From contig QPGO01000198.1 in assembly GCA_008632985.1 (NCBI GenBank), forward strand, positions 1 to 64,000: a DNA stretch of 64,000 bases, read 5' to 3'. Position numbers and translations under genes: made by a program. The notes beneath the pieces were generated by a model. That model saw only the letters and a program-made list of their open reading frames with translations. It made no database searches and was not told the origin of the DNA. Shown piece after piece: positions 2,580-64,000 of the stretch; position 1 is the first letter of the stretch; the number at the start of each line of letters is the position of its first letter. The DNA comes from Psammoneis japonica. Lineage: Eukaryota.

Positions 2580-5500
2580 AAACCACGAAGCCAACAAAGG
2601 CAGGCGGCGGATTGATTCAGTCAGGAATCCGCGACCAAGGAACTTGATGAGACAGATTCAGGAGGAAACAGCGCACTGGAAGATGAAAGAGCAAAACAAG
2701 ATGATGGCAGGGTCAGCTCATTCCAGAGCAGTTGTCAACTCTGGCACCCACTGGAGTGCACTGTGGTGCTGTGTCTTTTCCTGTGGGAAGTCAGACTGGT
2801 TGGAGCATCAAGCTTGAGGGCGCAGCATGTGACCCGGAAATGAAGTCATGTCTTTTAAACCCTGACATGGGGCATTGATGACTGTTCCATGGAGAATGTC
2901 CTCCAGTGTTGATCATGATCTCACCAACCTTTTTGTGCTCACTTTTTGGAGCGAATCTCATCTGGTGAAACAACAACATGGCAAGCGGCGCCTGTCGACA
3001 TCCAACAATCTGTCAGCATGTGTGCTCCATTGCATGATGTCAAGGCAAACCATGGCCAACACAGCAGCCAGGGCAAACACAATGAGTGTCACAGGATTCC
3101 CTTTTGGCAACATTGGTGTGCCGGCTCAACAAAGCTTGTGAAGATTTTGCAAATCCAAGCCCTCAAAGTGGGGGCAGTTGCTCTCACACAATTTGCCACA
3201 GAAATGATGCAGCCACAGGAGAGAACAGTGTTGCAGCCAGCTGCCAAACCCAATGACAGCAAACAATGGTGCCACATCTGGGTGATGCAAGCAGTCACTC
3301 AGCAAAGACATGATTTGAGAAAGAGCACAGATTTGAGAAGGGGGGGGGGCAGCATGTCACACCCAGCTGGCAGCGCCAGTCACGACACACGGTGCCAGCA
3401 TGCAATGACAGCACAGCACCACCAATGTCAGTGAAGACCCAATCAAAAATGGAAGCAGATGATCTGTAGAGCACATCATGTGTTTTGGGCATGGCAAGAA
3501 CAGTGGACACTCTGCCTCTGTGGCTGCCGCTCTGAGAACAAAATGACGTGCACCACACTGGACAAGCCAAAACCACACCAGCGCACACAATGGCAAACTT
3601 TTGCAGAAACCACCAAAAATTGAGAGTTGGGCAAACACAGAAGATGTTTGGAGGCTCTCTTGCTCTGTTGTGGCCTCTGCAATCTGTGAGTGCGGAGTTG
3701 TGAGTTGCCCCCTTTGTCATGAGGAGCCCATGTGTGGGCTGTTTGCCCCATGCTCATCATGCATGTGCAGATGCACAGCAAGCCCATGGCAAAAGCCCCC
3801 AACAAAGCGACATTTGGCAGAAAAGGCATGCTGTTCATTTTTTGACTGACTCTTGTCAGCTTCAGCCTTTCTTGCATTCTTGGCACCTTCTTTCATGCTT
3901 GTGCAAAAGCACGTTGACAAACCGGTGTCTGCAAAACACACACTTCTTTTGGCAGCCCAGCACAGTTTCAGGGTGGCTTTGAACTCCACAGAGCTCCTGC
4001 ACTTGCTGGCAACAGCTGGCTCAACACCCCTGGACATTGTTTGCACAAGTCTGTGTGCACACTCATGTGTGCAAACATCCTCACCTGCCAGACACCTGAG
4101 AATTCTCATGCTTGCTGTCAAAGCTCTGCAAAAGCACACCAACACCACTGCTGTGTTGACTGTGCTTTCTGTGGGGTGCAGCGGTGCCACCATGTCGAAA
4201 TGACCCACTTCTTGTTGTGTTGGAGATTGGCCAGACACCAAGCAAAGTGGAGGCAGTTGCTCCAACACAGTTGCTTTGAAAATGCTGCACAACCACGAAG
4301 GAGAGAACAGCAGTGGCCAACCACCAAACCCAACAAAGGGAAACAGCGCCAAAGCAGGATGACACAAGCAGGATGAGTGCCTTGGCAAAAACATTCAAGA
4401 ACAAAAGTGGGCTCAAGAAGGGGCCGCAGCGCACCATCCAGCTGGCAGGGCCAGTCCAAGATGCCCCACTCAGTGCCAACAGGCAATGATGCAGGGTGCA
4501 GTCTTCAACACCAGTGGAAACCCAGCCAAAAATGGAGGTGGATGATCTGCAGAGCACATCTTGTGCTTCCAGTGTGGCAAGAAGAGACATTCCTGTGCCT
4601 CTGGCTGCCCTTGGAATGACATGCCGCTGGACAAGTTGACTGAGCAAGAGCATGTGAATGCCACAGTCAGATCACCATGCCAGCAGGCAAAAGCAAACTT
4701 TGCAAAAGCCACCAAGAAGGATGAGTTGGAACAAACAGAGGATGTCAAGAGACGCTCTTGCTCCAGCATCATCATGGCCTCTGCAATCTGTGAGTGCAGA
4801 TTGAGTCACTCCCCATCATGATGAGGAGTCCATGTGCCAACTGTTTGTTGTGCTTGTGCACACATAGAGATGCACAGCATGCACATGGCAAGAAAGCCCC
4901 TTCCACAAGGCCCTCTGCTCATTTTTGACTGCTTTTCACCAGCTTCAGCCTTTCTTGCATTCTTGGAACTCCTGGTGCTTGCACAAGAGAAGAGCATTCT
5001 GATGAACTGCTGGTGTTTGTAACCCACACTTTTTCTGACTGCCCCAACAATTTCAGAGTCGCTGGAAACTCCAAAGCTCCCACACTTGCCAGCAACAGCT
5101 CCACATTGACTCTGGTGCCCATGCTTGACAACCTGGCTGGCTTCATTGTCCTTGCTCTGTCTCTCTGCAAACCATGCTGGGACCTTGCATGTGTTCTCAG
5201 GATTTAACCCTTGCCCTGCAACCCACTTTGCCACATCCAAAGCATTTTCTTTCAAATGTCTTGCCCCACTGCCACCGCCCTTTTTCTTGGGCTGCTTCAG
5301 CTTGGTGTGCTTGCACGCCTCATGCTTTTTCTCCTTGCAGCTGTGGCACATGACACTTGACTCTGTCACCATCAAACCAACTTCTTTGGTGCTCTCTGAT
5401 TTGGAATTTCTGCTTGCACTCCTCCATGAGAGCTGCACAACTGCTTCTTACAAATTCCTCATCTCCAAGGCATTTCTTGGATTGGCTGGTGGCTCCAGTC

Positions 5501-5890
5501 ATCACAACCAACTTGTGTGTCTTGGGCACTTTTTCAAATGCAAGAGCAATCAACTCATGGTCAGAAATGTTGTTGCATGGCACCATGCCAAGCTTGTCCC
5601 CAGCCAATCCACCTCAATGGCTGCTCAAACATTCTTTGAGATTCTTTGCTCTGTCTGAACTTTGGTGCATGAGGTGCAGCAGCTCAACCTTTAAAGTCAG
5701 CTCCTGCTGTGGCATGCATGTGTGCATCTGGTGGTGCAGTGCCGCCACCACCATTGTCTTCCATGCTGGCTTGCTGTGGGTCACTTTGTTGTCTGCGCCT
5801 TGGACATTGATTTCTTGGAACCGGGTGCAGATGGTGTGGTGAGCTTCGCTCGGGTTCGTTGGCCGATCTCTTGCACCAGCACATGCAGGA
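2580..5890. mobile_element. Degenerate TpA- and CpG-depleted repeat block, possibly an LTR retroelement relic (gag-like remnant on the minus strand)
   Basis: Near absence of TA and CG; Cys/His-rich spurious ORFs in all frames; minus-strand CHSCKEKKHEACKH near 5.3 kb resembles a decayed zinc knuckle. Confidence 0.55.
3300..5080 (+). repeat. Diverged direct duplication, period ~1.08 kb
   Basis: Anchors AAAAATGGA..GATGATCTG.AGAGCACATC at ~3446 and ~4527, TGGCCTCTGCAATCTGTGAGTGC at ~3670 and ~4775, and TTTTGACTG..CAGCTTCAGCCTTTCTTGCATTCTTGG at ~3840 and ~4922. Confidence 0.85.
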
Positions 5891-5969
5891 AGACGTCCCG
5901 GTGCCATACGACGGACGGACGAATGCTAAGTGGTCATCCATTTTTTGAGTGCACAATGAACAATCGACC

Positions 5970-7337: not shown

Positions 7338-7799
7338 ATCAATCAGGCGTATGACTTCCCCAGCGCTCCAAGACTCTCTCTAGAGTAGATTACATTTGTG
7401 AAGTGAATAACCAGGCCTCCAAAGCAAACAAAGGCAACGTCATCTAAATTTTTCCCTTTGCTCTCTACATAGAGGATTGATGTTCTGCGTGCCGTGAGGA
7501 TCTTGCTACTGTAGTTCTCAGGAAAGATTCTCTACTCTAGCTAGAGGTCTGTCTGCCTGCCTGTCGACAACGATCTGTAAAGCACAGGGAACTATCGACG
7601 GTACCACACACACCTTCAACCTTCGCAAACTGACAACTGACTGAACACGATGTTGTGTCATCTTATCACTTCTATTCATCTCGCTGCTGTTTCCCTCCCG
7701 AGAACCTACTCCAGATCAATAAAGCCATCGTATGGACCAGCAGTCTCAACTCTAAACAGCCTCTTATGCGAGAGCAGTGCTCCACAAGTGCACTTCGTC

Positions 7800-8768
7800 A
7801 TGAAAAAACAATGCCTTCTCTGCGGCGCCATTTTGAGCGCAATTCTTTCCAGTCTCGTATGCAGCGCTTTCACGCCGCATTCCAATGCTGCGCGTTCGAG
7901 ATATGAATTCGTATTGCACAGGAGAAAACAACCGGTGGAGCAAGTGGACGTGATCACTGGTGAAGTTCTCGAAGCATTTTCGTCCATGAAAGAAGCTGAA
8001 AGAATGGTCGGTGTTTCCCAACAAAACATTTCTGCGGTTCTTGCGGGAAGAGCCAAGTCAAGTGGTGGTTATTGTTGGCGTCGCCCTGGCGACACAACGC
8101 CACCACCAAAAAGAAACAAGCACACGAAAGCAGTGGAACAAGTGGACATTGAAACGGGCCAAGTTCTTGCGGTTTTTCCGTCGATGGTTGCTGCCGCACA
8201 AGCCCTGGGAATCCGCATAGACGGAACATCACGCGTTGTGGGAGGTTGCAAAGATCATTGTTTCTACAAGGGTTTTTTCTGGAGAGAGGCAGGGGACACC
8301 ACAATGCCCAAGGTGCGGTCAGACAAGAACGCAAAAAGCATTTCCCGCTTGAGACAAAAAGTGGAACAGGTGTGTCCTGAAACAGGGACCGTTGTTGCCA
8401 CATTCAATTCATCACAAGAAGCAGCAAAAGAGTTGGGAACACCACAGCAGACAATCTCAAAAGTTGTGAGAGGGATGCGGAAGATGGCAAGAGGACATCA
8501 TTTTCGAAAAAAAGGCAAACCCGAAAAGTTCAAAAAGTCCAACACAGCACGTCCAGTGCAGCAGATTTGCCTCAAAAGTGGCAAACTCTTAGAAACATTT
8601 CCTTCCCAAAATGCAGCTGCAGATGCAGTGGGCGTGACCAGTGCAAGCATCAGAAGTGCCGCGATTGGTCACACCAAAAGCAGTGGTGGGTGTGGTTGGA
8701 GACACGTTGCGTTTCAAGACGAAGTTCGCAATGTGGAAAGCAATGTTGTGGGAAAGAAGAGAGGTTGA
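7800..8768 (+). CDS. Plastid-targeted 4x NUMOD1/IENR1-like HTH protein, copy 1 (ORF open but lightly hypermutated)
   Basis: Near-identical to 19769..20737, with LY>LH, YYW>YCW, KY>KH, GYH>GHH and GYG>GCG changes. Confidence 0.7.
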   Translation: MKKQCLLCGAILSAILSSLVCSAFTPHSNAARSRYEFVLHRRKQPVEQVDVITGEVLEAFSSMKEAERMVGVSQQNISAVLAGRAKSSGGYCWRRPGDTTPPPKRNKHTKAVEQVDIETGQVLAVFPSMVAAAQALGIRIDGTSRVVGGCKDHCFYKGFFWREAGDTTMPKVRSDKNAKSISRLRQKVEQVCPETGTVVATFNSSQEAAKELGTPQQTISKVVRGMRKMARGHHFRKKGKPEKFKKSNTARPVQQICLKSGKLLETFPSQNAAADAVGVTSASIRSAAIGHTKSSGGCGWRHVAFQDEVRNVESNVVGKKRG

Positions 8769-9737
8769 CTAGCACGTGTTGAGCGACGCGACGGCAACTT
8801 TGAGACATGCGTTAAAAACCGGTGTTCCGTTGCGAATTTGGCTGTTTCATTTGTAGAAACGCAAACCTCAGCTCTCGGGCATTCTACACTTGGCAAGCTG
8901 CAATGTGTGGATGGTGTTAGAGAAGATAGAAAAAGGCAGAGAAGAAACGTTCAGACTCCCATTTTCTTCCCAAACGAGAATCCAGAATGTGGAACAGGCT
9001 TCTTTTACGATCTGGGAGAGATGCGAGGGAAAAGTTTGAGCAGAGAGGCAGGCACCTGCTGGTCAAGCGTGTCAACCATGGAGTTACAAATCACAGGGCA
9101 CTGTCAATTTGACGACAGTGAACGAGTTGCGATTGAAAAGCTGACGCAAAATGACGCAATCTTGCACCAAGCTGCCAAATGGGCATTTTGGAACAAGGTT
9201 GACTTTGTAGAGAAACAACACTCCATAAAACTTTGTTGAATAAATCAGGCGCATGACTTCCCCAGAGCTCCAAGACTCTCTGGAGTAGATTGCATTTGTG
9301 AAGTGAACAACCAGGCCTCCAAAGCAAACAAGTGCAATGTCATCTCCCTTTTTCCCTTTGCTCTCTACATGGAGGATTGATGTTCTGCGTGCCGTGAGGA
9401 TCTTGCCAGTTCTCAGAAAGATTCTCTGCTCCAGCTGCTGGCAGCTGGTGGCCCAGCTAGAGTGGACTGAGTAAAAGAATGCACACCATGCCATCTGAAA
9501 CACAATGATCTCTAAAGCACAGGGAGCTGTTGACGGCAGATGCCACGCACTCCTTTGCAAATGCTGAGCACAATGTTGCAATGTTGTGTCATCTTTCATT
9601 GTTTCATTGTTCATCTCGCACCGCTGTTTCCCTCCCAAGAACCTGCTCCAGATCAACAAAGGCATCACATGGACTGGCAGTCTCAACTCTAAACAACCTT
9701 TCATGCAACAGCAGTGTTCAACAAGCCTGACTTTGTC

Positions 9738-11126
9738 ATGAAAAAACAGCGGCACCTTCTCTGCAGCGTCATTTTGAGCGCAATCATTTCCAGGTCTTGC
9801 GTGCAGCACTTTCATGCTGCATTGCAATGCCGCACATTTGAGATGTGAACTCACATTGTGCAGGAGAAAACAACTGGTGGAGCAAGCAGACATGAACACT
9901 GGCGAAGTTCTCATCTTTTTGCATGTGACAGAAGCTGGAAGAAGAATGGTCGGCACAGCCCAACCACACATTTCTGTGGTTCTTGCAAGAAGAGCCAAGT
10001 CAGATGGTGGTCATCATTGGTGTTGCCCTGGTGACACAACAAGACCACCAAAAAGAAACAAGAACATGAAAGCAGCAGAACAAGTGGGCATTGAAGCGGG
10101 CCAAGTTCTGAGTTTTTCCTGATGGTTGCTGCCGTGCAAACCCTGGGAATCCACCTGGGAGAACATCATGCATCATGGGAGGTTGCAAAGATCATTGTTC
10201 CTCCACTGTTTTTTTTCTAGAGAGAGGCGACATGTTCCAGCTCCAGGTGGGACCTTGTGCCACTGAACTGTGACATCAATGGTTTTTTTAAACGCATCGC
10301 ATGTCGCGCACGTGTGCATTTCTGCATGTGACATTCTACGAAATTGTTTCATGCTTCCTGTTTTGCAAAGCCAAAGGCTTTTTATTTTCAACATTTGTGA
10401 GAGTGAAAATGCACTGGGTGTGTTCTTTAATGTCTGCAGAACACACCCGGGCAAACTGTTGATGATGTGCTCTAGAAGTGTGAAGGAGAAGATGCGTTCA
10501 CAAAATTGCCTCTTTTTCTGTTGGCAATCATTTGTGCTCTCATTGCTTGACAAATTTACTGCAAAGCTTGCACGCAGAATTCCACGGGCCAAATGTCACA
10601 TGGAGTCCCACCCAGCAGGGCTGGAACCCGCCAGGTGGGGGACACCACAATGCCCAAGGTGCAGTCAGGCAAGAATGCAAACAAGAGCATTTCCCACTTG
10701 GGACAAAAAGTGGAGCAGGTGTGTCCTGAAACAGGGGCCATTGTTGCCACATTCAATTCATTGCAAGAAGCAGCAAAAGAGTTTGGAACACACCACAACA
10801 GACAATCTCAAAAGTTGTGAGAGGGGTGAAGAAGATGGCAAGAGGACATCATTTTCGAAAAACAGGCAAACCCAAAAAGTTCAAATGGTCCCACAGAGCA
10901 CATCCAGCACAGCAGATTTGCCTCAAAAGTGACAAACTCTCTTAGAAACATTTCCTTCCCAAAAGGCAGCTGCTGATGCAGTCAGCTGGTGTTTCCCATG
11001 CAAGCATCAGAAGTGCCATGATTGGTCACACCAAAAGCGGCGGTTGTTCTGGATGGAGACACATTGTGTTTCAAAACGAAGTTCACAATGTGGAAAGGAA
11101 TGTTGTGGGAAAAGAAGAGAGTTTGA
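9738..11126 (+). pseudogene. NUMOD1 gene copy 2: heavily mutated, frameshifted and interrupted by a MITE
   Basis: Colinear with copies 1 and 3 (RRKQLVEQADMNTGEV; VGDTTMPKVQSGKNANKSISHLGQKVEQVCPETG), with indels and a ~400-bp insert. Confidence 0.9.
10231..10630. mobile_element. ~400-bp MITE-like insertion with ~25-bp imperfect terminal inverted repeats
   Basis: Absent from copies 1 and 3. Left end GTTCCAGCTCCAGGTGGGAC; right end GTCCCACCCAGCAGGGCTGGAAC (reverse complement GTTCCAGCCCTGCTGGGTGGGAC). Confidence 0.75.
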
Positions 11127-12729
11127 CCAGCATGGCTTGAGCAATGCAACAACGGAAACTTTGAGACATGCAATGACAACCAGCACTCCACCGCAAATTT
11201 GGTTGTTTCATTTGTAGAAACGCAAACCACAGCTCTCGGGAATTCCACAATCAGCAAACTCCAATGCATTGATGGTGTTGGAAAAGACAGAGAAACAGGC
11301 AGAGAAGAAACGTTCAGACTCCCATTTTCTTCCTGAACGAGAATGTCCAGGATGTGGAACAGGCTTCTTTTGCAATGTGGGAGAGGTGCAAGGGAAAAAT
11401 TTGAGCAGAGAGGCAGGCACCTGCCAGTCAAGCGTGTCAACAATGGAGTCACAAATCATGTGGACACTGTCAATTTGACTCACAGCGAACAAGCTGCGAT
11501 TAAAAAGCTGACGCAAAACAATGTGCTCTTGCATCTGGCCACCAAACGGGCATTTTGGAACAAGTTTGAGTTTGTGGAGAAACAATCCTCTGCAAAGTTT
11601 TGTTGAACAAATCAGGTGCATGACTTCCCCAGAGATCCAAGACTCTCTGGAGCAGATTGCATTTTTGTGAAGTGAGCAGCCAGGCTTCCAAAGCAAACAA
11701 GTGCAATGCCATCTACTCAGAACACTGCAATTGCCACTTGGCCAATTGTTGAGTCCCTTCTCCGCACACACATTTAGGCATGTGTTGTGCACAGCATCAT
11801 CACACAGCATTTGTCCAACTCATCTCACTTTTTCCCTTTGCTCTCTGCATGGAGGATTGATGTTCTGCATGCCATGAGGATCTTGCCAGTTCTCAGAAAG
11901 ATTCTCCACTCTGACAGCTGGCAGCCTCTAGACTGAGCAAGAGCAAAGAACACACACCATCTGACACATGAGGTGTGTCTGTCTGCCCATCAACAATGAC
12001 CAGCAAAGTGCAGGGAACTGTCGACGGTGGATGCCACACACACCTTCAACATGACAATGTTGCGTTGATGTTGTGTCATCTTTCATTGGACTCTCTAGAG
12101 CAGTGCAGTCATTTTCAGCATCTGCGGAAAAATCATGTTTTTTGTGGTGGAGCCGCGTTTTCATGCAAAAGCGCAAAAACCCATGGGCCTTTTCGCACAG
12201 CACAGCCATGCAGAAGCACAAAAAGCATGAAAAGCACACATGCCTTGTGCAGCCAGAGCAATTTGTTGCACAAAATTGCACACGAGTGAAGCAGTGGTGG
12301 GACCATGATGATGCCATCTGACATGAATCACAACAGAGACCAAACAAGTGGGATGCTGCTGTTCATTCAACACATGCATGCTGCCAACAATGTCACCCTC
12401 AACATTGCCATGCCTGCAATTGTCATTTTCAGGGGCCTCCAAAAAACCACCTTGTGGACCCGAGTCTGGGAGGAGTTCCTTCTGGTGGCTTGGGCCTGTC
12501 TTGCAAAGGCAGACCGGGCTCACAATTGTCCAAGATTTTTTTCAGTTCATTCTTGTGCACACAAACTTGCCCACCAAGGGAAAGGCAAGCAGGAAGCTTT
12601 TGTTCTTGTCCTTTCCTGCTGCCCAGTTGTTTTCAAACCTCAGGGCTCACCCCCTCAAACTCTGACATCTTTGCCGCGCATCTCTCCTCCAGATGCTTTG
12701 CGCATGCAGACAGGTTGTTCTTGTCCACT

Positions 12730-14600
12730 TTTTTTATTTTAGAGTTGTCTTGTCCTCCTCATGGGCCACATGTTCAACAAGCTCCAATGTGTGCTTGAGC
12801 AGAGACTTCTCAGTTGTGCCTTGTGGAGCTGGGATGTTTTTCCAAGAGCCGGGGTCATTGTGAAACTGCCGGTCTTTGAACAAATCTTTCAACAACGTGG
12901 CAACCATCATTTTCTTGTTGTCCTTTTTCTCAGGCACAGCCTTGGCTGCTGAATTGTGCGCCAAAGTTCTCGCAGCTGCTGGAAACAAATCCTGTGGGGT
13001 GGTGGCAGTGGCAGCACCAGTTGCAGCAGTGGCAGCACTGGTTGCAACTGGCAGAGCTTGTGCAGGTGATGGCACTTCCAGTCTTGGGCTCTTGTTGCTT
13101 GTCTCTGTGTTGCTGGTTTCTCTGGGGCGCTGTCTTGATCCCCTGGCTCCCGGCAGTCTTTTCAACAGCAACAGCTTGCTTCATGACACCTGCAGTTCTT
13201 GTTGTTGCTCCTGCATTTGCTGTTGTTGCTGGTGCAGTGTCATTTGCAATGAGGCAACAGTGCAATGATCAGACTGTTTTTCTTGCACCAGGGTTGCCAT
13301 CATTTGCTTCAGTTTGAACAGCACATTTGACTGTTGATTCACAGCTGCTGTCACTTGGGCCTGCCCTCCGCCTGGAGCAATTTGGGCCATTTCTGGATTG
13401 TGCTCTCGGAAGTCTTTCATGATTGTGGCAGACCCCACTCATCAAGAATGGCCTCTGGAGAAATGCCTGGGAAGTGGGCATTGGAAAGGCTTGCACTTCT
13501 GGCAGCAGTGCAAAGTTTGGTCACCACTGCATTGTGGTCTTTGCATTCTTGGGTGACTCGGACATGACACATCATCAATGATGCAAGTCCTGTCTGAAGG
13601 ATTTGGTGCAGCCCTCTCTGCTTGTCTTTAAATCCTTGCATTGAAATGACAAAGTTTTTGTCAGCTGTTTCTCCACCTGTGCTGCAACATGAATTCCCAG
13701 GCTCTCGAGTCGGGGCACCCTTGTGTCGATGTCGACGTTGTCATGTCGATGAAGGGCCTTGGCAGCTCTAAGTCCCAGCACAAACAAAGTGAAGTTGGCA
13801 TGGGAATCCAAGGAGGTGCCAGCAGTGTGCCCTGATCAGGAACAAATGTCTGCAATTCCAATCAAAGGGTGAGCCATGAGTTCTGTGATGGAGCCGCGTC
13901 ATTCAGATTTGGCTGAAAACGTCTTTGCAAGATTTTCGGAACAACCATTGGGCAGATTTGTCCTTGCACTTGTGAAGATCTGGAAAGACAAAGTTGGCAA
14001 TGGCCTGCTTGTCTGCACCAGAATGAAATGGGCCACCCTCCATGGCCCAAAATCTTGCCATGCAATGACAGAAATCCAGGAGAAATTCAAGCCGGTGCGG
14101 GACCATTGCCATGGTGCACTTTCGGAGCAGCTTGAGCTCCACCCACCCAGTGTCTGTCACTTCAAAGAAAGGATGCCATTGCCAATCAATGCAGCTGTTG
14201 AACTTAATTTCAACACCTCGACCCACCACAAAATGCAGCATTGCAAGCCAACATTGCTGCTGCAAAGCTCCTTCCCTGTTGCACAGCAGGGTGGCTTTGT
14301 CAAAAAGCTTTTTGACAATGCTCAGGAGATCAATCTTCTGAAGCAAGGTTCCAATGTCATCATCAGGTGCAATGTGATTGCCGCAGAAGAGACGATTGTC
14401 CTGATGGGGTGGCTGGGTGGTGGCATTGCCAAAAACGTGCATTCGCCACCTGGAGACGTGTGGAGCCGAGTGCACTCTCTTTCAAAAGTGGGGTGCATTC
14501 TGCTCCACCACTCAGGCACCTCAGATGGCCTCAAGCCTTGAGTCCAGGTGGTTTGGAAATTTTTCATGCAAGAACTTGATGACCTTCCCAGTGCATTTTG
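12730..14600 (-). pseudogene. Decayed tyrosine-recombinase (Crypton-like) coding relic
   Basis: Minus-strand reading FSAKSE*RGSITELMAHPLIGIADICS*SGHTAGTSLDSH near 13.8-13.92 kb resembles YR box II (HSxRRG..T..RxGH/W..Y), with the catalytic Tyr position read as His. Recognised by eye only. Confidence 0.45.
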
Positions 14601-15239
14601 AGAGAGACGATGCCATCACTGGCTTGACGGGCTCATCTGCATTGTGACTCCTTGGGGGGGAAGGTTGGCATCAAAGTTTGCTGGAGTGGGAGTGGTGGAA
14701 ACCCACAAACAGAATTGAAACATCCTGCTTCCAAATTCTTGCTGTCAGTTTTGACAAAATGCATTTGAGCTGTTGGCAGCCTGCCCATAAAATGGCAAAA
14801 CACCTTGTGCAGCCTTGTTGCCACCCTGTTGGCTTGGGCCGTGCTGCCAGCATCTCCCATGTTGTGGCCCAACTGACCAGGCAGAGAAGGTTGCTGGCTG
14901 GACATGGTGTCCACAACCAACAACGCGACAATGCGATGACGACAATGCAACAATGATGCAACGTGCGACACACTGCTGCCAATTTGCATTGCCACCAATG
15001 ATGATGTCAATGCATTGTCTTGTGCATTGGCATTGGGCATTGTGCATTGTGCCCTGGAGGTGCCCCATGCGCAAAAACCACAGAAAGATTGCCACACAGA
15101 CTCTGGCACAAATTCCGTTTTTGCACAGTTGTCGTGTGAAAATGGGTCAGTGCAGAGGGAAAAATCTGCAACACCCCCCCCCCCCCCCCCCCCCCCAAAT
15201 TTGAGTTTGCCCAAAGCACAACTTTGACCACACATTTGC

Positions 15240-38941: not shown

Positions 38942-38980
38942 TCAACATAGAACACTAAATAGTGCATATTGTGTAAAGAA

Positions 38981-44556: not shown

Positions 44557-44579
44557 GAACCATTTGAAAACATGGTCAC

Positions 44580-46900: not shown

Positions 46901-47107
46901 TGCACGGCATCTTCACAGTAGACCACGCATGATGATTGGGTGAGGGTTCTCATTTCCACGACCTCGCACAAAATGTTTTCGCGGGGGGAGAGGTCGTGGA
47001 TTGCGAGCGGAGGGCAAAATAAAGAATAAAGAAGTGATGGATCGCAGAACAGACAAATGGTTTCCACGTTACAAACACAATAGAGGAATAAGTCGATCAT
47101 CAGTACC

Positions 47108-50699: not shown

Positions 50700-51900
50700 G
50701 ATTTGTGAAAAATTTGAACCCCGACTGAGTTGTTGCGTAGATGATGTCATGTCATGGTGTCTTCGTGTGCTTGTGTGGTTGCATGAGAGCACTTGTGTGC
50801 ATCTTTTGAGTCCTGTCCAGCATTGTGCAAAACATGTGATTGACTCATCTCCGATGCTTGTTGTTGGCAGCTCAAGCAGCTTGGACCAGGCTGCAGAAAA
50901 GAACTGCCAGAGTGTGAAGCTCCCTTGTCACACCTTCAAGAGAGACAGCAGCTGATTTGATTGGTCCATGGACTGTCATTGTGCACCGGGGGCACAAGAT
51001 CCTTGAATTTAAAGAAATTGCTTTTGTGTTGGTGCTGTTGCCAGCTTGGCTGAACTTGTTTGCATTGACAATGAGATGTCTTGGCATGTTGCAAACTCTC
51101 TGCAATCTTTGATTGTCTTGACATCCCCACAACCAGGCAAAATCATTGCATCCGCCATCACAAAGGTGGCAAGTTTTTGGCTGGGAGGTGAGTTTCAAAT
51201 GTTGCTCAACCAAGTTGGGGTGAAAGACATGCCAGCTGCTTCACGCAACCCAACAGCCAACGCAATCTGCAAATGAGTGCACAACATGGCAGCTGACATC
51301 TTGTGTGCTCTGTTTGTTGTCCACCCTCTTGAAAATGTTCAACAGGCAACTGAAGTGGTGGACAATGCACCAGCTGCCATGCTTCGTGTGTGATGATGCG
51401 GTGGAACCACACCATGACTGTTCAAGATCTGTGGATGTTTCATCCAGCATGTTGATCTCACATCTGCTGACAACACAGCAGATGTGGCCACCACTCAAGC
51501 CAATCATCAAGTTCTCATCAATTAAAATTTTCAGCGACAGAGTGCAAAGCACCGTTCTTTTGGCTGTCAAGTTGGGGGCAAGACAATGCACCACTCAAGG
51601 TGGTCAATCCCTCCAAGATGGAAGCTCAAACAGCTGCTGAGCTGTTGGGCAGGATGGCAGCACATGTCCATGCCAGCAGGGTTGCATCAACATTGCACAC
51701 ACCTCATGTGTGGCAGAGTGGATTGAGGACAGATCTGCACACCATGGTGTGTTGCGTTTTTCAGCTCTCAGCACCAGCCAAGACAAGATTTTGGTGTGAC
51801 ACAAGTGCGCCAATGATGATTTTGGCCATGTGCATTGCTTGGCTCAGTGAATGCAGACATGCAAATGGCCAGTCAAGTGCCAATTGTCAGATGAACCCAA
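50700..51900 (+). mobile_element. Ty3/Gypsy integrase relic within a TpA-depleted block (~49930-54080)
   Basis: ADLIGPWTV (~50950), ELVCIDN..S.HVA and GGEFQMLLNQVGVKDMPAASRNPTANAICK*VH match rve-core motifs of Gypsy elements. Confidence 0.75.
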
Positions 51901-52189
51901 AAAGTTGCGTGGCTTCTTCTTTCCCACAAGAAAGCCAATTCTGCCTTTGTTTCACGGCCATGCCCTCCACATGGTTTTCTGCGCAAGCTCTGGCACAGAT
52001 GTCGCCTTTTTCTGACGGTGCAATGATGGTTCTTACCTGCCTGTTCAGATGTGTTCCTTTGTCGACATGCCATTGTTCTATGATCATTGACAATCTCATG
52101 CAGTGGAAAACGAATTGCACCCAGCTCTCTTGGCTCAATCGCTCGACGTTTTTCTCGGCATTTTTTGTTCTCGCGTGCAAAGTTTCTGC

Positions 52190-52900
52190 ACAGGTCTCAG
52201 TGCAAATTCTACGTGTTCTGCAAGTCATTTCAGATGGACAACTCGCCAAACTGCCGATTGCTCTCTCTCCATGCCTCTCAAGCATCAATGACCCCCCTTC
52301 TCTCCATTGTCCATTCAAGTTTCCTGTGTTGTGTGGTGAACATCTTCCTGTCGTTGTTCCTTTCAGAAGTTTGAAGAAGAGACCAATTCAGTGTGCATTG
52401 GCCAATCTTCCGCGTGCCGACAAGTCTGCACAAGTTTCAGCACAAGTTCTACGTGTCAAGGAAATGTTTTCAAACAGCCGATCTCCCAATCACTCGACTG
52501 CTCTCCATCCACACCTGCCAAGCTCCAAAGACCCCCCCTCTACCTGCTGTCCTTTTAAGTTCTCTGCTTTATGCAGCGAACACCCTTCCATCTTTGCTGC
52601 TTCCAGAAATGTGAATTTGAGATCGACTCGGCTTGATTTGGCTCTTTGCCTGTTTGCCGATGCTTCCTGCCAAGTTCCCACACGAGACTCAGTGCAAGTT
52701 CTACGTGTCATGAAAACATTTTCTGACGGCCCATTTTCCGATCATCCGATGGCTCTCCATCTGTGCCTGCCAAGCTCCAACAGCCCCCCCTTTCCTCAGT
52801 GCCTTTTTAAGTTCTTTGCTCCATGTGATGAACTCCTTTTTGTTGTTGCTGCTGCCAGAAGTTTGATTTTAAGACCAACTCGGTGGTTGGTGATGTTTTG
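52190..52900. repeat. Three diverged ~240-250-bp tandem units
   Basis: CAA.TTCTACGTGT at ~52203, ~52443 and ~52695; minus strand reads LE.GR..WRA....TRRTC.E three times. Confidence 0.75.
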
Positions 52901-54248
52901 GTCCCTGTTTGTGAAATTTACGGTGTTTGCTCTGTTTCAGATCCCTTCTCACTGTGGAGTGTTCCAACATGGCTTGCTTCAGTGGAATGATCAGATCCAG
53001 TCAGAAGCAAAGAGCCATTCTGTTGCTGTGGTTTCAAGTGCTTTGAAGGTGCTAAATCAATTTGCCGTTGCTGTCTACGACACTGCTCCCAACTGTTCCC
53101 GGCGGGCGTCATCATTTGTTGGTGACGCCCATCTTGGCCAATCGCAGTGCATTCCTGCCGCACACATGTGTGCTGGGGGTGTGGGTTAGCTTGTTGCCAG
53201 AGTTGCAGGGTGGAAGCACAGCAGCACTTTAAATGTAGAATTTTGGTTTTGTTTCCCACAAGAAAGCCGGCTTTGGCAAAAATCAGCAGTTTTGTCCACC
53301 CAGGAGCTGGTCACAGGCCAACAAACGGCATTTGAAGCATCAAATTTGCAGCTCTCACAGCCCTGATGAGAGCTTTTGATGTGGGGTGGGTGCTCCAAGG
53401 CAGGTCAACATGGTGTGGTGTGAAGAGTGTGGGAAGTGCGAGCTGCTGCCTCTGGGTTGGAGCACAGCACATGCATGATTTCATCCTTGATGCCCAGCAA
53501 GCAGCAGTGATGCATTGAGGTCCAGGGTTTTCTTTCCAACCCTTCTTGGGTCTCCCTTTCCTTGCACTTGAATTTGAGTTTGGTTCATTGACTCCATGGG
53601 GTGCGGTGTTCCTCGGACCAAAGAGGTGGAAGAACAAGCGCAGATGGAGCAGCGGTTGCCCACACTCTGTGGTCATGAGTGCCTCCACTGATGCACACAT
53701 GAAACCACCAACACACTGAACTTTGATGGGGAGACATTGGAGAAGGTTCTCCATCAGCGAGCCCTTCCAGGTCTTCCCACCACAACAATTTTGCTGAAAT
53801 CCCCAAGAAGCCTCAGCTGCACCAAGCTGGACATCCTTGCAAAAAAGCCCGCTCTGAGAGGCGGGGGGCAACTGCAGTCGTGGTCAAAGGTGTTTCTGTG
53901 TTGACAGCAGTGCCTCAGTTGCACCAGCAGTCAAAGTCATGTCCTTGTCCACCATTCATAATTGGTCAAGTCACAGTTTAGAGTGTGTCCTGTTCAGAAC
54001 AGACCAGCAACACACGTGCCGGCATACGGCAGCCACGACACACCCTGTGAAGCATCAGCGTGCGACAGCAGACGATTCATGTGCTACGATTGACGTTGTT
54101 GGTTGTTGGTTGAGTCGCAAAGATGCCAATGGCATTGCGATGCCCCTTCACGGTTGGCTTCTCGCTTTTCCTCACTGGTTTCAGCCTCCACAACAGTTGA
54201 AACAGTAGAAGTGCTTCTCCAGAGATCCGAATTCTTTGATGAATCATC

Positions 54249-58748: not shown

Positions 58749-59024
58749 TGACAGAAATTGAAGGCAAATGGCAAGAATTCAAACAATGACTCCTCACTGC
58801 TGTCTAAATGGCAGATGAGTCTCCGCTCAGAGACCGTTGCAGGAGCCGAAAGACGTGTAAGTCGGTATAATCGGGCTACTGTCATTATTCTTGTGAGCCT
58901 TGTGGCTCGAAAGCAAACTACATCGCGCGTGAACGCGCGGAACTAAAGCACACAAAACTGTGCGCGGTAAACTAAACAGCGCGCGATGCTTCGCGCGCAT
59001 CCAAATCCTGTTCAAATCCTGTCA
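58749..59024 (-). repeat. 3' LTR (~276 bp) of the Copia element
   Basis: Ends TGACAGAAATTGAA / TTCAAATCCTGTCA form an imperfect inverted repeat with TG...CA; preceded on the minus strand by the purine tract GGGGAG (59025-59030). Confidence 0.75.
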
Positions 59025-62000
59025 CTCCCCAGTTTGCTTGAGGAGCCACAGAAACAGATTCGACTTCGGATGGAATGAAGTTCCAGAACATGAGGGGCGG
59101 AGAAGGTCCCAGATTTGGGAGTGACCCCAATGCTTGCTGAGAATGTCAGCAGGGTTGCGGGAGCCTTCGATGAAGTGGAGCTCAAGGTGACCAGAGGCAA
59201 TTGCCTCACGCACACGGTGGAACGACAGTGCGGTGTGTCGCTTGTGTAACTTGGAGTGCGGGATGGTGGCACTGTCTACAACCGACTTGTTGTCACCGAA
59301 CATGCAACTGACATTGCGGATCGGGACGCCAAGGTGGCGCAGGGTGATGCGCAGGTCGATGATCTGCTCAACACAATTCCTTGCGGCAACAAATTCAGAT
59401 CCGCAGGTTGCAGTCTCCACGGTGGCTTGTTTCTTGGAGAACCAATCAGCCGGGAATTTGTTGAGGAAGTGGAGCATTCCCATGACAGAGCGTCCGGTGA
59501 GCATGCAATGGTGCAAGTTTGCATCGACGCAGTGGGTGGCAGTGACGAACTTGCCAAGGGGCGGTGGAGCGTCCTTCGGGATCATCTCTTCTGCTTCACC
59601 ATGCACGGAATGCATCCATTCACAGGCCGGAGCAGGGAGCTCCGAACAGTCGGGCTCTTCCGTGCGAACGCGGAGAGCACCGTGTCGCATCTTGGAGAGG
59701 CACCCACAGACGCGTTTGGCACGATCCAAGTGGCCTTGACGGGGTGCAGCTCGGAAGCTAGAGAGTGACATGACAGCCGTGGTGATGTCAATTTGACCAA
59801 GGGACACTGCCCATTGGAGTGAACCAACAAGAGACTGGAACTTGTGAATGCCATCGGGTCCCAGCAGTTCGGAAGTGTCCAGTTCGGGGTGGTCACCCTT
59901 CTCTAGAGGTGACAGGGCGTTGGTGGCAGGTTTCTCCCCAAACAGTCGGGCGCAGCTGTCGACCATGCGCTCGATGTACTTGCGCGGAGACAGGCACAAG
60001 GTTCCGTCGGGGTCCCGGGAAAAGTCGCAACCCAGATGGAACTCAATGGGTCCCGCACCCTTGAGCTTGAACTTGTGCTTTTCCGTGAGAGTGTCGACGA
60101 AAGATTGAGGGTCCTTCATGGCAATGGCCAGGTCATCCACATAAACGGCAATGTGTTCACAGTGGTCGCCGTTCCTGCGCATCCAAATGTCGGGTTCGGC
60201 GCGGCAGGGGAAGAAGCCTTCAGCTCGCAGGCAGTCGGCGAAGCGCTCGTGCCAGCGGAGACCGGAGCTGCGCAGTCCATGCAGTGCCTTGTGGATGACA
60301 AGGATGTGTCCTTCGAGTTTGCCAAATTCGGGTCCAGCTGCAATGTAAAGCTTCTCCTTGGTGGTGGCTTCAAGGCAGGCATTGCCAATGTCGGTGGCCC
60401 ATGTCTCCAGCTCGTTGAGTTCGGCCAGGAAAATCATCAGCCGAAGGCCACGGAGGGAGACTGCTCCGGAGTGGACACTGTCGATGGGTACGTCCGTGAG
60501 GTGCCCGTCGGCTACGAGTCGTGCCTTGTGGCGACCGTCGTGTTTCACGTCGCACACCAGGTGCACTCGGATCTTCTTGTGTCCCGCAGGAGGAGCGGAA
60601 GACTTGAGGGGCCCGCAGTCATGGAAGACTTCGCATTCGTCGAGTTGGTCCATCTCGAGATTAGTTGCGTCTCCCCACTTGCGGTTGCCGTTGCGTTCGT
60701 CTAGTGACATGGCGTGTTTGCAGTTCCGGGGAACTTCGCATCCGTACTTGTGGCGAGGTGCAGTGCGGAAGGAGCGAAGCTTGGCTTGGCTGGCCATGCG
60801 AAATAGCTTCTTTTGGCGCCTCGCGACAGTGCGGAACCGCTTCCAGCCATCCGTGTCGAGGAGTCCGTTCTCTCGTGCATAGATGGCACAGGTGACGGGG
60901 TCGTCCTTGGTGATGATGGCAAGAGGCTCGGACGTGATCTCCCCACTTTCCCATTCAAGCATGATGTTGTAGCTTGAGCCTTTCCAGGTTGGGTCGTGAG
61001 GCTTCAGAGGTCCTTCGTGTGACACGATGCGTCGAAATTTCCAAATGGTGGTGTCTTCGTCTTCTTGCTCAATGTGATTCATGATGTCATTGTAGGCAAG
61101 GACTTCCTCGTGTTCGTCATTGTTGACAGAGCAGACGAACTCAGTGAGCTCGGGATTGCCGTTCACTTTCCATTCGTGGTCTTCGACGGCCTTGATGATG
61201 CGAGCTCTGTGGCGTTGTCCGTCCTCTTGTGGCTGCATGAGGAAGGTGCGTCCAATGATGTCTTGCGGATCGAAAACTGGCATCTTGGGTGTCCTGATCT
61301 CCCCATCAGGAGAATCGACGGGGTTGTCGTCATGGCGAGATTTGATGATGGGTTCAGGTGGCTCCCCATCAGGAGGATCAAGACGCAGGTTTCGAACGGC
61401 AGGATCGGGGGCAGCAGAGCGAACGTTGGACCGGTGGAGGATCTTCTGAGTCTCGTCAGATGGGACCTTGAAGGTCATCTGGTGGCCGACGTGCTCAGCA
61501 ATGCCAACGAAGCGTCCACGCAACTCACGGGATTCGGACGGCCAATCGGAGTCATCGAGGTGGAAGTGCACTGGTTCCCACCAGTGAAAGCGAAGCAATG
61601 GGCTGATGTCCGGGGTGGATCCAGTGAGAGTCTCGAGGGGCATGCGCCAGTGGAGACGTGGGGACGCTGTGTGGTTGAGCATGAAGCACACGCACATGAG
61701 CGCCAGCAGCCATGTGTGGGCGGGCGAACCAAAACGATCCATGACAGTGTTCGCCATGCGCTTCACGGTCTGGTGTCGACGCTCGGCAAAGTTTTGGTGT
61801 TGCTGGTGAGGCTCACTTTGCCAGCTGGAGATGAAGAGGGCGCGTGGGATCCCGAGCACTTTGTTGCTGATCTCAACTTGAGCACGGTCGCTAATGAGTT
61901 TGGATGGGGCACCACATTCACGGATCTGATCCTCGAGTGTGTTGACAAACTCTTTGTCCGTCTCAGTGCCGTAGACGTCAGTGACGGTAGACTCGGTGCC

Positions 62001-64000
62001 AACAAACAGTTGGGCGCTGGTGCAACCAGAGTCGACGGCCGGGGTGTCGGCATGAACGGTGTCAGTGGCGACAGGCTCGTTGCGGCGGTGCACGTTAAGG
62101 GCGGGGTTGGGTGATTTGTAGGCCTTGCGAAGGTGTGTGCCGGCGGGCATGCGGGCGTGCTGCGTGGTGCAGTCAAAAGTGCGACGGACCGCATCGGCAG
62201 GTAGGAAGCCAAAGCAAGGCCGAAGAGACTCGAAGGGGGGGTCCTTGGGCTGTACAGTGCGCTCCGGAGGTGGAACGTCATCGCCCTTGGGGTCAATCGC
62301 ATGCAGATGACACTCGTAGAACACGTCATCGTTCGGAATGAGGTGATCATCGAGGGCGGACGCGTGATCGGCAGACAAGGAAGCGGACAAGATGGTCTCG
62401 TTGACAACGACACGGTGACGGCAGTTGCCGCATTCGTCAAATGGGTTGGCAGTGGGATCGTCCTGCAGGTCAGAGATTGCGTCGTGCCACTGGTCGTCGT
62501 CAGTGACAGAGTGATCGAGGACGGAAGGGTCCCATGTGTCATCACCGGTGAGGATGACATGGGGCAGGGTGTCCCATTCGGCGTCAGTGCAAGGTCGCAT
62601 GGCAACATAAGGCAGGCCAGCCTTGATGTCAATGGGGATGACATAGCCATCAGGAGTGGCAATGCGTTGCAAGCCGTTGGGCACCTTGACAGAGCGATCG
62701 TTGACATCCTGTTTGTGCCATTTGAGCTGGCCACAGGAATGGATGGTCTTGCCCTTTCCCGTGCATGCATGCTGATGGAGGATGGCGATGACGGGACCAC
62801 GCTGGGTCTCAATGACGGCACCAGCGGTGACAATGGGGATGTCCACCAATTGATGATCGTCAATGCCCTGAACGTCGACTTGGCGAGAGGTGCGTGCAAT
62901 GACGCGAACGTCGTCGCCAGCAATGCCGCCGTTGGCCCCACGATCGACTAGAGCGCCAGTGCGTGTGGAGCGATGAGCAGAGGCAGAGCAAATGACATTG
63001 TGGTTGTTGACGCGGCGGCAAGTGCGGCCGTCAAGTTCCATGTCATCTGCAGAAGCTGGCGGGGTAGAGGAAGCGGCGGATGGCCCCGGTCGACTGGCAT
63101 TGGGGGCTTGGTTAGGGGACAACAGACGTTGCAGATCACCGGGTGGCAGTGGCTTGCGCTTGGTGAGGTGCGCCAGGATGGGATTGTCCGAAGTGGCGTC
63201 CACATGTGTGGCGGAGTCACCACAGTCAGCAGGAGTCGTGTTGGACAAGTTGACATCTCCGTCACTCCCAAGGTGTTGGTCGTGAAGGTTGGCCGTAACA
63301 GACTCATGGCAGTCACTGGCTCGCGGGTTGCGGGGAGGCGGACGACAGTGCTCAAGGATGATCGCCTTGGAGGAATCGGGCAACGAATCCCAGAGCCGTT
63401 GGTGGTCGGGAGGGAGACGTCTCCATTGGACACCGGTGAGGCTGGGACCGCGGGTGTGGGCAGCATTGGCTTGAAGGACGTCAACGTCGCTGTCAATGTC
63501 ACAGAACACATCGTCGGACGGTTCCTCGGAGCAGACGTCATGTGCGCACATGGCGCGTCGGGGAGCTCGAGGTGTCGTCTTGGGTTGAAACGTGCTGTCG
63601 TACTGAGCTGCCGCGGAGAGGAGCAAGCCACAGCATTGATCGTATGTGAGGCTCTTGCCACTCTGCGTACGATGCTGATCAGCTTGGTTCTTGACAGCAC
63701 GGAGTTCCTCGACAGGGTGCACGGCATTCTCGAGCATGACGCGCTTCTGTCCTTCAGAGAAGTGGTCACTGGCGGGGATGAGTGCCTCGCACTTGCGCAA
63801 CTGATCTTGCCAATGAAGGATGAACCCGTGGGTCGGACCTTTCCAAGTGCCATCACCAAGACGTGCGGTGGTGAGGTACGTGAGCAGGGTGGAGGACTCG
63901 ACAGATGCACGGGTGGAGGCAAGCGCGCACTCAGACAAGGAGCGGCAGACGGTCTGTGCGTCAGAAGACCCCACATTTTCGCGAATGAGAGCCTTGCCCT
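59022..64000 (-). CDS. Copia gag-pol polyprotein, ORF open but hypermutated and probably inactive
   Basis: Protease LVDRGANGG, integrase ATDT..SDRAQVE..QNFAERR, RT YVDDL, RNase H VDAN..GSEF..GDNKSV..NPADILSK; many normally conserved Tyr read as Cys or His. Confidence 0.92.
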   Translation of the reverse strand, partial: GKALIRENVGSSDAQTVCRSLSECALASTRASVESSTLLTYLTTARLGDGTWKGPTHGFILHWQDQLRKCEALIPASDHFSEGQKRVMLENAVHPVEELRAVKNQADQHRTQSGKSLTYDQCCGLLLSAAAQYDSTFQPKTTPRAPRRAMCAHDVCSEEPSDDVFCDIDSDVDVLQANAAHTRGPSLTGVQWRRLPPDHQRLWDSLPDSSKAIILEHCRPPPRNPRASDCHESVTANLHDQHLGSDGDVNLSNTTPADCGDSATHVDATSDNPILAHLTKRKPLPPGDLQRLLSPNQAPNASRPGPSAASSTPPASADDMELDGRTCRRVNNHNVICSASAHRSTRTGALVDRGANGGIAGDDVRVIARTSRQVDVQGIDDHQLVDIPIVTAGAVIETQRGPVIAILHQHACTGKGKTIHSCGQLKWHKQDVNDRSVKVPNGLQRIATPDGYVIPIDIKAGLPYVAMRPCTDAEWDTLPHVILTGDDTWDPSVLDHSVTDDDQWHDAISDLQDDPTANPFDECGNCRHRVVVNETILSASLSADHASALDDHLIPNDDVFYECHLHAIDPKGDDVPPPERTVQPKDPPFESLRPCFGFLPADAVRRTFDCTTQHARMPAGTHLRKAYKSPNPALNVHRRNEPVATDTVHADTPAVDSGCTSAQLFVGTESTVTDVYGTETDKEFVNTLEDQIRECGAPSKLISDRAQVEISNKVLGIPRALFISSWQSEPHQQHQNFAERRHQTVKRMANTVMDRFGSPAHTWLLALMCVCFMLNHTASPRLHWRMPLETLTGSTPDISPLLRFHWWEPVHFHLDDSDWPSESRELRGRFVGIAEHVGHQMTFKVPSDETQKILHRSNVRSAAPDPAVRNLRLDPPDGEPPEPIIKSRHDDNPVDSPDGEIRTPKMPVFDPQDIIGRTFLMQPQEDGQRHRARIIKAVEDHEWKVNGNPELTEFVCSVNNDEHEEVLAYNDIMNHIEQEDEDTTIWKFRRIVSHEGPLKPHDPTWKGSSYNIMLEWESGEITSEPLAIITKDDPVTCAIYARENGLLDTDGWKRFRTVARRQKKLFRMASQAKLRSFRTAPRHKYGCEVPRNCKHAMSLDERNGNRKWGDATNLEMDQLDECEVFHDCGPLKSSAPPAGHKKIRVHLVCDVKHDGRHKARLVADGHLTDVPIDSVHSGAVSLRGLRLMIFLAELNELETWATDIGNACLEATTKEKLYIAAGPEFGKLEGHILVIHKALHGLRSSGLRWHERFADCLRAEGFFPCRAEPDIWMRRNGDHCEHIAVYVDDLAIAMKDPQSFVDTLTEKHKFKLKGAGPIEFHLGCDFSRDPDGTLCLSPRKYIERMVDSCARLFGEKPATNALSPLEKGDHPELDTSELLGPDGIHKFQSLVGSLQWAVSLGQIDITTAVMSLSSFRAAPRQGHLDRAKRVCGCLSKMRHGALRVRTEEPDCSELPAPACEWMHSVHGEAEEMIPKDAPPPLGKFVTATHCVDANLHHCMLTGRSVMGMLHFLNKFPADWFSKKQATVETATCGSEFVAARNCVEQIIDLRITLRHLGVPIRNVSCMFGDNKSVVDSATIPHSKLHKRHTALSFHRVREAIASGHLELHFIEGSRNPADILSKHWGHSQIWDLLRPSCSGTSFHPKSNLFLWLLKQTGE

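Follow-up and report, generated by a model that had tools for sequence, protein, structure and literature searches.

Signs of TpA-directed hypermutation in six bounded islands of nuclear DNA from the diatom Psammoneis japonica

Among described systems, the closest to the one considered here is that of Bigelowiella natans, a chlorarachniophyte alga (Rhizaria). In the available text of their preprint, Mettrop et al. (bioRxiv 10.64898/2026.01.13.699255) report 231 de novo mutations from two silent viral inserts of this alga, of which 230 were A>G or T>C. These A>G and T>C mutations all lay on the dinucleotide TpA (TA), occurred in only some of the mutation-accumulation lines, and arose at about 6e-7 per site per generation, approximately 1000-fold above background. 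The same text describes TpA-poor clusters, rich in CpA and TpG, that are enriched in reverse transcriptase (RT) and DDE genes, and its authors propose an ADAT2-like adenine deaminase; that text is silent on diatoms, CpG, and flanking context. The present analysis concerns a comparable footprint in the first 64,000 nucleotides of contig QPGO01000198.1 (assembly GCA_008632985.1) of the diatom Psammoneis japonica, hereafter the window, in which six islands have lost nearly all TA. The preferred interpretation is that TpA hypermutation of the B. natans type is met here for the first time in a diatom.

The likeness to B. natans, as far as the preprint's text goes, is considerable. In both, the changes are confined to TpA, run from A:T to G:C so as to yield TpG or CpA on either strand, and act regionally while sparing neighbouring genes, the B. 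natans targets being silent or foreign DNA. However, the host here is a diatom (Stramenopila), and the depletion is deeper, with a TA observed/expected ratio (O/E) of 0.03-0.15 against a Rho_TpA of 0.45 in the giant-virus (nucleocytoplasmic large DNA virus, NCLDV) insert of B. natans. The targets also differ: here a Copia element is among them, as are tandem duplicates and a paralog of a host gene. Moreover, CpG decay (O/E 0.15-0.40 in five islands) is nested here in the same domains and is separable from the TA loss. The rate was measured directly in B. natans, whereas the footprint here comes from sequence comparison.

Other systems are less similar. Fungal (ascomycete) repeat-induced point mutation (RIP) likewise scrambles duplicated or mobile DNA in place by dinucleotide-specific transitions, leaving sharply bounded, skewed domains and dead transposable elements (TEs). 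Unlike the present process, RIP converts C:G to T:A, mostly at CpA, and so creates TpA, whereas here TpA is destroyed and CA and TG are created. RIP also strikes all repeat copies, whereas here a 94%-identical gene copy (c3, below) and the 7118-7900 part of another (c1) are spared. Decay of 5-methylcytosine (5mC) at CpG in diatoms is matched by the loss of CpG to TpG and CpA in five of the six islands, and by the retention of only 10 of 69 CG between c3 and a third copy (c2), but TA is lost beyond the CpG loss and also without it. APOBEC3 enzymes reportedly edit LTR elements in animals (PMC4866542). APOBEC deamination is C>U at TC or CC, and ADAR acts on RNA, on one strand of the eventual cDNA. 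Such editing resembles the present case in its clustered, context-specific transitions that inactivate retroelements, but here the A or T of TA is changed, on each strand of the DNA and also outside retroelements. DNMT4 occurs in many diatoms, and TE methylation in Phaeodactylum depends on DNMT5a, according to the portion of PMC9998398 used here. Literature searches for TpA hypermutation in diatoms found no report. The original prediction, made from the letters of the window, knew of no description of such a system in diatoms, and these searches agree with it; the novelty of the signature itself is tempered by the B. natans preprint (bioRxiv 10.64898/2026.01.13.699255).

TA loss, its edges and CpG

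All counts given here refer to this one 64-kb window. The edges of the islands were set by gaps free of the tetranucleotide RTAY, and the islands are as follows.

Island 1: 2518..5907, free of RTAY; TA and CpG both nearly erased; about 99.7% identity to contigs of sequencing run X1
Diverged tandem duplication in island 1: 3164-4017 and 4243-5100
Island 2: 7912..19699, 11.8 kb, its only RTAY at 16465; includes the 3' end portion of c1 and the entire c2; segment 12-19 kb is unidentified DNA
Tandem array in island 2: 16318-17117, 182-bp unit, 4-5 units, about 75% identical
Island 3: 23561..26441, between an HA-domain gene and the RPB1 gene; free of RTAY
Diverged direct repeat in island 3: 24295-24976 and 25109-25779
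Island 4: 44169..47104, free of RTAY; CpG retained but TA lost in the left 0.6 kb
Island 5: 49693..54025, free of RTAY; holds an open reading frame (ORF) of about 240-bp tandem repeats (51600-53189)
Island 6: 58866..64000, RTAY sparse; Copia retrotransposon extending past the end of the window; GC 0.58

Inside these blocks TA O/E is 0.00-0.17, compared with 0.4-0.8 outside (per-kb ratios and counts per 250 bp), and TG and CA are approximately doubled (O/E 1.5-2.1). For islands 1 to 6 in order, TA O/E is 0.038, 0.082, 0.025, 0.030, 0.090, and 0.154, and CG O/E is 0.15, 0.40, 0.16, 0.32, 0.36, and 0.90, island 1 being computed on the block 2751-5750. Altogether the blocks (28.5 kb) retain 138 TA and the flanks (35.5 kb) contain 1,278; at the density of the flanks, about 1,026 would be expected in the blocks. 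The tetranucleotide RTAY occurs 394 times in the window with a median gap of 58 bp, and not once in islands 1, 3, 4, and 5. Uninterrupted RTAY-free stretches in the islands measure 2.9-8.6 kb, while the longest such gap among 80 related metagenomic Copia loci is 633 bp. The RTAY-poor domains (2.9-11.8 kb) alternate with genes of ordinary TA content, and their edges adjoin those genes and are sharp to a few hundred bases. The six TA-poor blocks and the normal TA of neighbouring genes were already part of the original prediction and are confirmed by these ratios, with edges within about 0.3 kb of those first proposed.

The co-depletion of CpG is an addition to that prediction, which cited CpG decay only as an established process. 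CpG is strongly depleted in five of the six islands (O/E 0.15-0.40), the exceptions being the Copia island, c1, and the left 0.6 kb of island 4. At this left edge, the windows 44251-44750 contain 0 and 0 TA together with 13 and 10 CG. All CpG-poor stretches are nested within TA-poor stretches, and the converse fails. The simplest account of the CpG loss is the usual decay of 5mC in silenced repeats of diatoms, which here either trails the TA loss or reaches less far. An alternative is one dual-specificity deaminase causing both the TA and the CpG loss.

Direction, strands and sequence context of the change

Three copies of a NUMOD1 / I-HmuI-like gene allow the direction of change to be read.

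c1: 7650..8768, plus strand, partly hypermutated NUMOD1 copy lying across the left edge of island 2
c2: 9028..11715, plus strand, heavily hypermutated tandem NUMOD1 copy
c3: 19745..20737, plus strand, spared NUMOD1 / I-HmuI-like copy with ordinary genic TA, taken as proxy for the ancestral state

At 37 aligned TA of c3, c1 has kept 16 and shows CA at 13 and TG at 6; the reverse, CA in c3 opposite TA in c1, occurs only once. In c2 the loss is nearly complete, with 3 of 38 TA kept (21 CA, 8 TG) and few transversions. The TA retained in all three copies amount to three sites, in the contexts CTAA, TTAG, and GTAG. CG is kept at 59 of 72 positions in c1 and, as noted, at 10 of 69 in c2 (31 CA, 24 TG), and dinucleotides other than TA and CG are kept at about 50-85% between c3 and c2. 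Outside TA, the same comparison gives 13 A>G and 9 T>C against 11 G>A and 9 C>T, so that the excess of A>G and T>C, for which the original prediction had asked the substitution spectrum to be examined, is confined to TA. Relative to c3, changes that create TA (CA>TA plus TG>TA) number 4 in c1 and 10 in c2, compared with 19 and 32 changes of TA to CA or TG. Furthermore, eight outgroup proteins from a homology search match c3 at Y248C, I304T, I362V, I377T, Y396H, and Y473C, column 473 being Tyr in all eight, and also at R316H, a CG>CA change. The asymmetry is absent from control paralogs outside the islands (1185-1714 and 49393-49923; 85% identical).

The Copia retrotransposon of island 6 carries the same signature at the protein level.

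Copia polyprotein ORF: 59022..63974, minus strand, 1650 aa, RVT_2 domain (E 3.4e-24), still open

This ORF contains about 0.8-0.9% Tyr, 3.0% Cys, and 5.4% His, while the median Tyr content in 150 Copia homologs is 3.8% and only one of them, P0112, lies lower. Aligned with 12 of the 150 homologs returned, the ORF has 25 columns of conserved Tyr, at which it shows 6 Tyr, 8 His, 7 Cys, 3 Phe, and 1 Trp; a second alignment with 30 such columns gives 6 Tyr, 9 His, 10 Cys, 4 Phe, and 1 Trp. The remaining conserved residues are retained, namely W 10/10, H 15/15, G 43/44, P 35/36, and E 26/26. P0112 itself is a 381-aa Copia fragment from a 10,018-bp metagenome contig and has no tyrosine at all; at 13 conserved-Tyr columns it shows 9 Cys, 3 His, and 1 Phe, and therefore the signature also exists outside this assembly. 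TA O/E in the 80 related metagenomic Copia loci never falls below 0.49 and has a median of 0.71, and several of these loci, among them L069, L005, L002, and L016, combine a CpG O/E of 0.10-0.24 with ordinary TA (0.49-0.57). Thus the TA loss is neither a trait of the Copia family nor a by-product of CpG decay, and CpG decay without TA loss is common in other hosts. The Copia block has a GC content of 0.58, compared with 0.44-0.55 for the 80 related loci and about 0.48 for the window outside the block, which fits a TA>TG/CA process that raises GC with no CpG decay to offset it.

Both strands are mutated, as the original prediction had claimed, and they are mutated equally. The products in the Copia tyrosines are near balance, with 8 His (T>C in the sense strand) and 7 Cys (A>G), and TG and CA counts are about equal in islands 1-5. 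Runs tests there gave z values of -1.9 to +0.35, similar to the flanks, and detected no strand-coordinated tracts in these five islands. Moreover, among the adjacent double differences that separate duplicates within an island, CA/TG doublets are the most frequent class (29 of 117 in the island 1 duplication, 17 of 49 in the island 3 direct repeat, and 13 of 62 and 12 of 28 in further comparisons), whereas the control pair outside the islands shows 2 of 21. Such discordant doublets are expected if the same ancestral TA or CG was mutated independently in each copy. The flanks R..Y surround 17 of 48 discordant doublets, compared with 67 of 351 concordant ones, an enrichment that is mild because CG-derived doublets are mixed in. 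By these comparisons, the changes occurred in place, following duplication. The direction of change is TA>TG/CA, as first predicted, on the evidence of the spared paralog and the outgroups, the Copia tyrosines, and the CA/TG-discordant doublets.

It is barely credible that retroelement RNA underwent ADAR-like A-to-I editing before it was reverse-transcribed, or that the DNA is foreign and has an intrinsically TA-poor composition. Editing by ADARs would agree with the retrotransposon nature of island 6 and with the 5' U preference of these enzymes cited in the discussion of the B. natans preprint (bioRxiv 10.64898/2026.01.13.699255), within its available text. However, editing is expected on the transcript strand only, contrary to the strand equality of His and Cys and the runs tests, and the affected DNA includes segmental duplicates that diverged in place and other non-retroelement sequences. 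The preference of ADARs for a 3' G is also opposite to the lower susceptibility of T-A-G than of T-A-Y described below. An intrinsically TA-poor composition is excluded because of the polarity of change against the paralog and the outgroups. The duplicates mutated in place thus uphold the earlier claim that the process acts on DNA and is not RNA editing during retrotransposition.

The process is probably still going on, with variants segregating. Among the 40 of 112 differences between the window and X1 contigs that were listed, 12 events lie in island 1 (2822-5038); two of these are CA<->TG doublets, with inferred ancestors GTAT and ATAC, and two more are TA versus CA, in an island that retains only 7 TA. 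Over 1,186 bases of flank there are 4 differences, all of an ordinary kind.

The sequence context of the loss was estimated as apparent TA survival in the five islands poor in both TA and CpG, relative to the flanks.

ATAC/GTAT: 0 (about 118 expected)
ATAT: 0 (about 51 expected)
GTAC: 0.014
ATAG: 0.05
ATAA: 0.09
GTAA: 0.11
CTAC: 0.14
CTAG: 0.18
CTAA: 0.29
TTAA: 0.78

A model in which the per-strand rate is set by the base 3' of the adenine alone fits 9 of the 10 context classes closely, with fitted rates of about 2.3 for T, 2.1 for C, 0.85 for G, and 0.12 for A; CTAC departs from it, with 0.05 predicted and 0.14 observed. The order of susceptibility would accordingly be T-A-T and T-A-C, far above T-A-G, which is far above T-A-A; the same rule read on the other strand is R-T-A for T>C. 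CpG survival is nearly independent of context (0.18-0.52). The Copia tyrosine codons fit A>G at T-A-Y, since a following pyrimidine goes with 5 Cys and 3 His and a following purine with 2 Cys and 5 His. At the NUMOD1 locus, YTAY sites have yielded 11 CA and 4 TG, and CA products dominate in all context classes.

The equal readability of the change as T>C in R-T-A would suit a modified thymine at TpA, such as 5-hydroxymethyluracil (5hmU) or a J-like base laid down by a TET/JBP enzyme, and dinoflagellate 5hmU favours TpA and TpC. This explanation is nevertheless very unlikely: nothing found here points to such a base in diatoms, and 5hmU pairs with A, so that mutagenesis would need a further step.

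It is highly improbable that the islands are a sequencing or assembly artefact in which a modified base of heterochromatin was misread and TA is in fact intact. What speaks for it is that only one sample's runs carry the sequence and that the platform is off record. In the comparison with runs X1 and X2, made on window 1-20000, the X1 contigs cover 30 of 30 bins at a 31-mer depth of about 60 and match the island sequence at about 99.7% or better. They differ from the window at 8 letters in 2002-4510 and at none in each of 10601-11326, 12904-13506, and 15250-15716. Contigs built of exact words at this depth imply accurate reads, and they reproduce the islands. Additionally, strand-dependent misreading predicts all-TG and all-CA versions, whereas interleaved TG and CA are seen; P0112 has the same Tyr>Cys/His pattern in another source; and neither the gradients between the paralogs nor the context rule is expected from miscalls. 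As far as testable, the letters are real and the TA loss is no base-calling artefact.

Targeting and candidate mechanisms

The original prediction described the process as repeat-targeted and the blocks as nearly all recognisable TEs, and neither description is supported as worded. Internal duplications or tandem repeats are present in five of the six islands, and none was detected in island 4. Only island 6 is recognisable, as Copia. Among the ORFs of at least 110 aa in islands 1-5, 0 of 70 matched Pfam (E<=0.01); 0 of the 40 ORFs of these islands tried against PHROGs gave a match, and likewise the 2 flank ORFs tried; and tblastn with six full-length Copia proteins as queries gave matches confined to island 6. 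Overlapping ORFs of 110-220 aa crowd islands 1-5 in several frames (e.g. 3717-4394, 13876-14541, 24377-24982, and 44859-45467), because the erasure of TA deletes TAA and TAG stop codons. In island 2, an inverted repeat (15064-15182 and 17671-17789; 119 nt, 81% complementary) distantly flanks the 182-bp array, and the two together may be the remains of a mobile element.

Targeting appears to follow the chromatin or silencing state of a domain and not repeat homology, because a 94%-identical copy is spared and the edges stop at genes. The spared copy c3 is aligned with c1 over 1.26 kb (1,255 aligned bases), yet keeps genic TA. At the left of the c1 unit, 0.7 kb (7118-7900) that recur in c2 also keep their TA (7, 14, and 13 per 250 bp), the loss starting at about 7.8-7.9 kb and being complete by 8.0 kb. 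The 31-mer depth of island 1 in X1 equals that of the single-copy flanks. The domains would thus look like chromatin spreading from a core.

A homology-triggered process, i.e. a true mirror of fungal RIP that mutates the TA and CG of sensed duplicates, is accordingly quite unlikely. It could draw on the repeats within five of the six islands, on the independent mutation of duplicates after duplication, and on the DNMT4 of diatoms, a relative of RID of unknown function in the consulted part of PMC9998398. Against it stand the unmutated state of c3 and of the 0.7 kb with which the c1 unit opens, island 4 with no detected internal repeat, and the single-copy target in B. natans, as given in the preprint's available text.

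Two side observations concern the same copies. The c2 copy contains an insert of about 0.4 kb (~10229-10637) that is missing from c1 and c3 and is probably a very high-copy small element; X1 word depth reaches 13,222 in the bin 10006-10672 that holds it, compared with about 60-100 around, and several contig joints skip 112-126 bases. With 5 TA per 250 bp, this insert is less depleted than the DNA around it and so may postdate most of the hypermutation; the insert may also have nucleated the hypermutated domain. Run X2 covers genic pieces only (1-2293, 6668-7250, and 19663-19986) at uneven depth, with an 80-base skip at 2290-2371, and leaves 2669-6003 and the greater part of island 2 uncovered. 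Its c3-like contig has 1 difference to c3 and 55 to c1. X2 resembles a transcriptome, which hints at c3 as the copy that is expressed; its record does not list it as RNA, and no conclusion on silence is drawn from it.

The sharing of domains by TA loss and CpG decay, with the CpG loss nested, lends some appeal to error-prone patch repair in methylated heterochromatin, in which a Pol-eta-like polymerase would misinsert G opposite the T of TA. The patch repair would be recruited by 5mC deamination or other lesions, and phase II of antibody somatic hypermutation at WA motifs is an analogous mechanism. Correct repair of T:G mismatches could even spare CpG and yet damage nearby TA, as would be needed in Copia and c1. 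However, the Pol-eta spectrum includes AA targets and many transversions, and this counts against the explanation: here nearly all changes are transitions at TA (29 of 38 from c3 to c2 are CA or TG), and AA shows no elevation, with 114 of 140 kept. The B. natans spectrum likewise consists of transitions in 230 of 231 cases, and the available text of that preprint (bioRxiv 10.64898/2026.01.13.699255) carries no mention of CpG. Error-prone repair is therefore an unlikely source of the pattern.

The reading preferred here, and considered likely, is a real, heritable process that changes TA to TG or CA in place in the six islands, is guided by domains, is the same as the B. natans type, and probably works by adenine deamination. 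The comparisons above show the heritable, TA-specific transitions, on both strands and in place, and their confinement to domains in which CpG decay is nested; the guidance by chromatin, the identity with the B. natans process, and the chemistry are inferred. On this account, six gene-free or pseudogene islands would have been mutated by A:T>G:C transitions at 5'-TA-3' on either strand, at a rate many tens of times background and near saturation. A retrotransposon and tandem duplicates would lie within the affected domain, together with a gene copy turned pseudogene and DNA that cannot be identified, and the domain would end at genes. The chemistry may be enzymatic deamination of adenine to hypoxanthine in DNA, with a TadA/ADAT2-like deaminase as candidate. 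Adenine deamination is favoured because it is the simplest source of transitions that are purely A:T>G:C. TadA/ADAT substrates have a U33-A34 context, with which the 5' T agrees. By analogy, the process would be identical to that measured in the mutation-accumulation lines of B. natans, and its likely consequence would be the permanent inactivation of invading or duplicated DNA.

Several points weigh against this reading. The evidence comes from one window, and the gene-rich flanks are only a proxy for the ancestral composition of the islands in the survival estimates. The products at the NUMOD1 locus contradict the prediction of A-deamination at T-A-Y, which makes the strand assignment of the context rule tentative. 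The separation of CpG loss from TA loss as a process of its own is likewise inferred, and the foreign or repeat nature of islands 1-5 is only partly shown. X1 may be the assembly's own source, with library type and platform off record, so that its agreement is not fully independent. Lastly, everything is deduced from fixed differences and a few polymorphisms.

A wider proposal can be made tentatively, with the balance tilted somewhat against it: diatoms and chlorarachniophytes may share a dedicated, chromatin-guided defence by DNA adenine deamination ("inverse RIP") that rewrites every T-A-Y on both strands within bounded domains. Such a defence would recognise silenced or newly arrived DNA, act faster than the decay of methylated CpG, and leave ORFs open while scrambling their proteins.

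The window as diatom DNA, and implications for diatom genomes

The window is diatom nuclear DNA. In a protein homology search, its RPB1 shares 81% identity with that of Attheya, 80% with Odontella, and 77% with Chaetoceros among named diatom relatives, the top match overall being 85%.

RPB1 gene: 27079-31610, with exons for the heptads of the carboxy-terminal domain (CTD) continuing to about 32.4 kb

These C-terminal heptads (YSPTSPS-like, 31717-32449) are encoded by short exons of about 150 bp, each followed by a GTGAGT-like donor, in a repeated exon-intron unit. Other eukaryotic nuclear genes in the window encode HA-domain, GH16/CBM60, GAF, and RING proteins, besides the three copies of the NUMOD1 / I-HmuI-like gene.

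Natural A:T>G:C mutation at a fixed motif in bounded domains of double-stranded chromosomal DNA is otherwise represented by one preprint of 2026, with no mechanism. The nearly saturated diatom case extends the process to a second major algal lineage, one that is ecologically dominant and includes some genetically manipulable species. What is new here is the rule by which T-A-Y is mutated and TTAA spared, the separability from CpG decay, the action in place after duplication, and the precedence of domains over homology. The case might lead to a DNA adenine deaminase that occurs in nature, or to a pathway equivalent to one, and to genome defence of a new class; it might also explain the unannotatable "dark" repeat DNA of algae. 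There are consequences for annotation as well: the erasure of TAA and TAG leaves long false ORFs that mislead gene finders, and the loss of tyrosine from TE proteins weakens homology searches. If the shared defence proposed above is real, the T-A-Y rule would be the fingerprint of its enzyme, and relating RTAY-free islands to gene content across diatom genomes could identify that enzyme.

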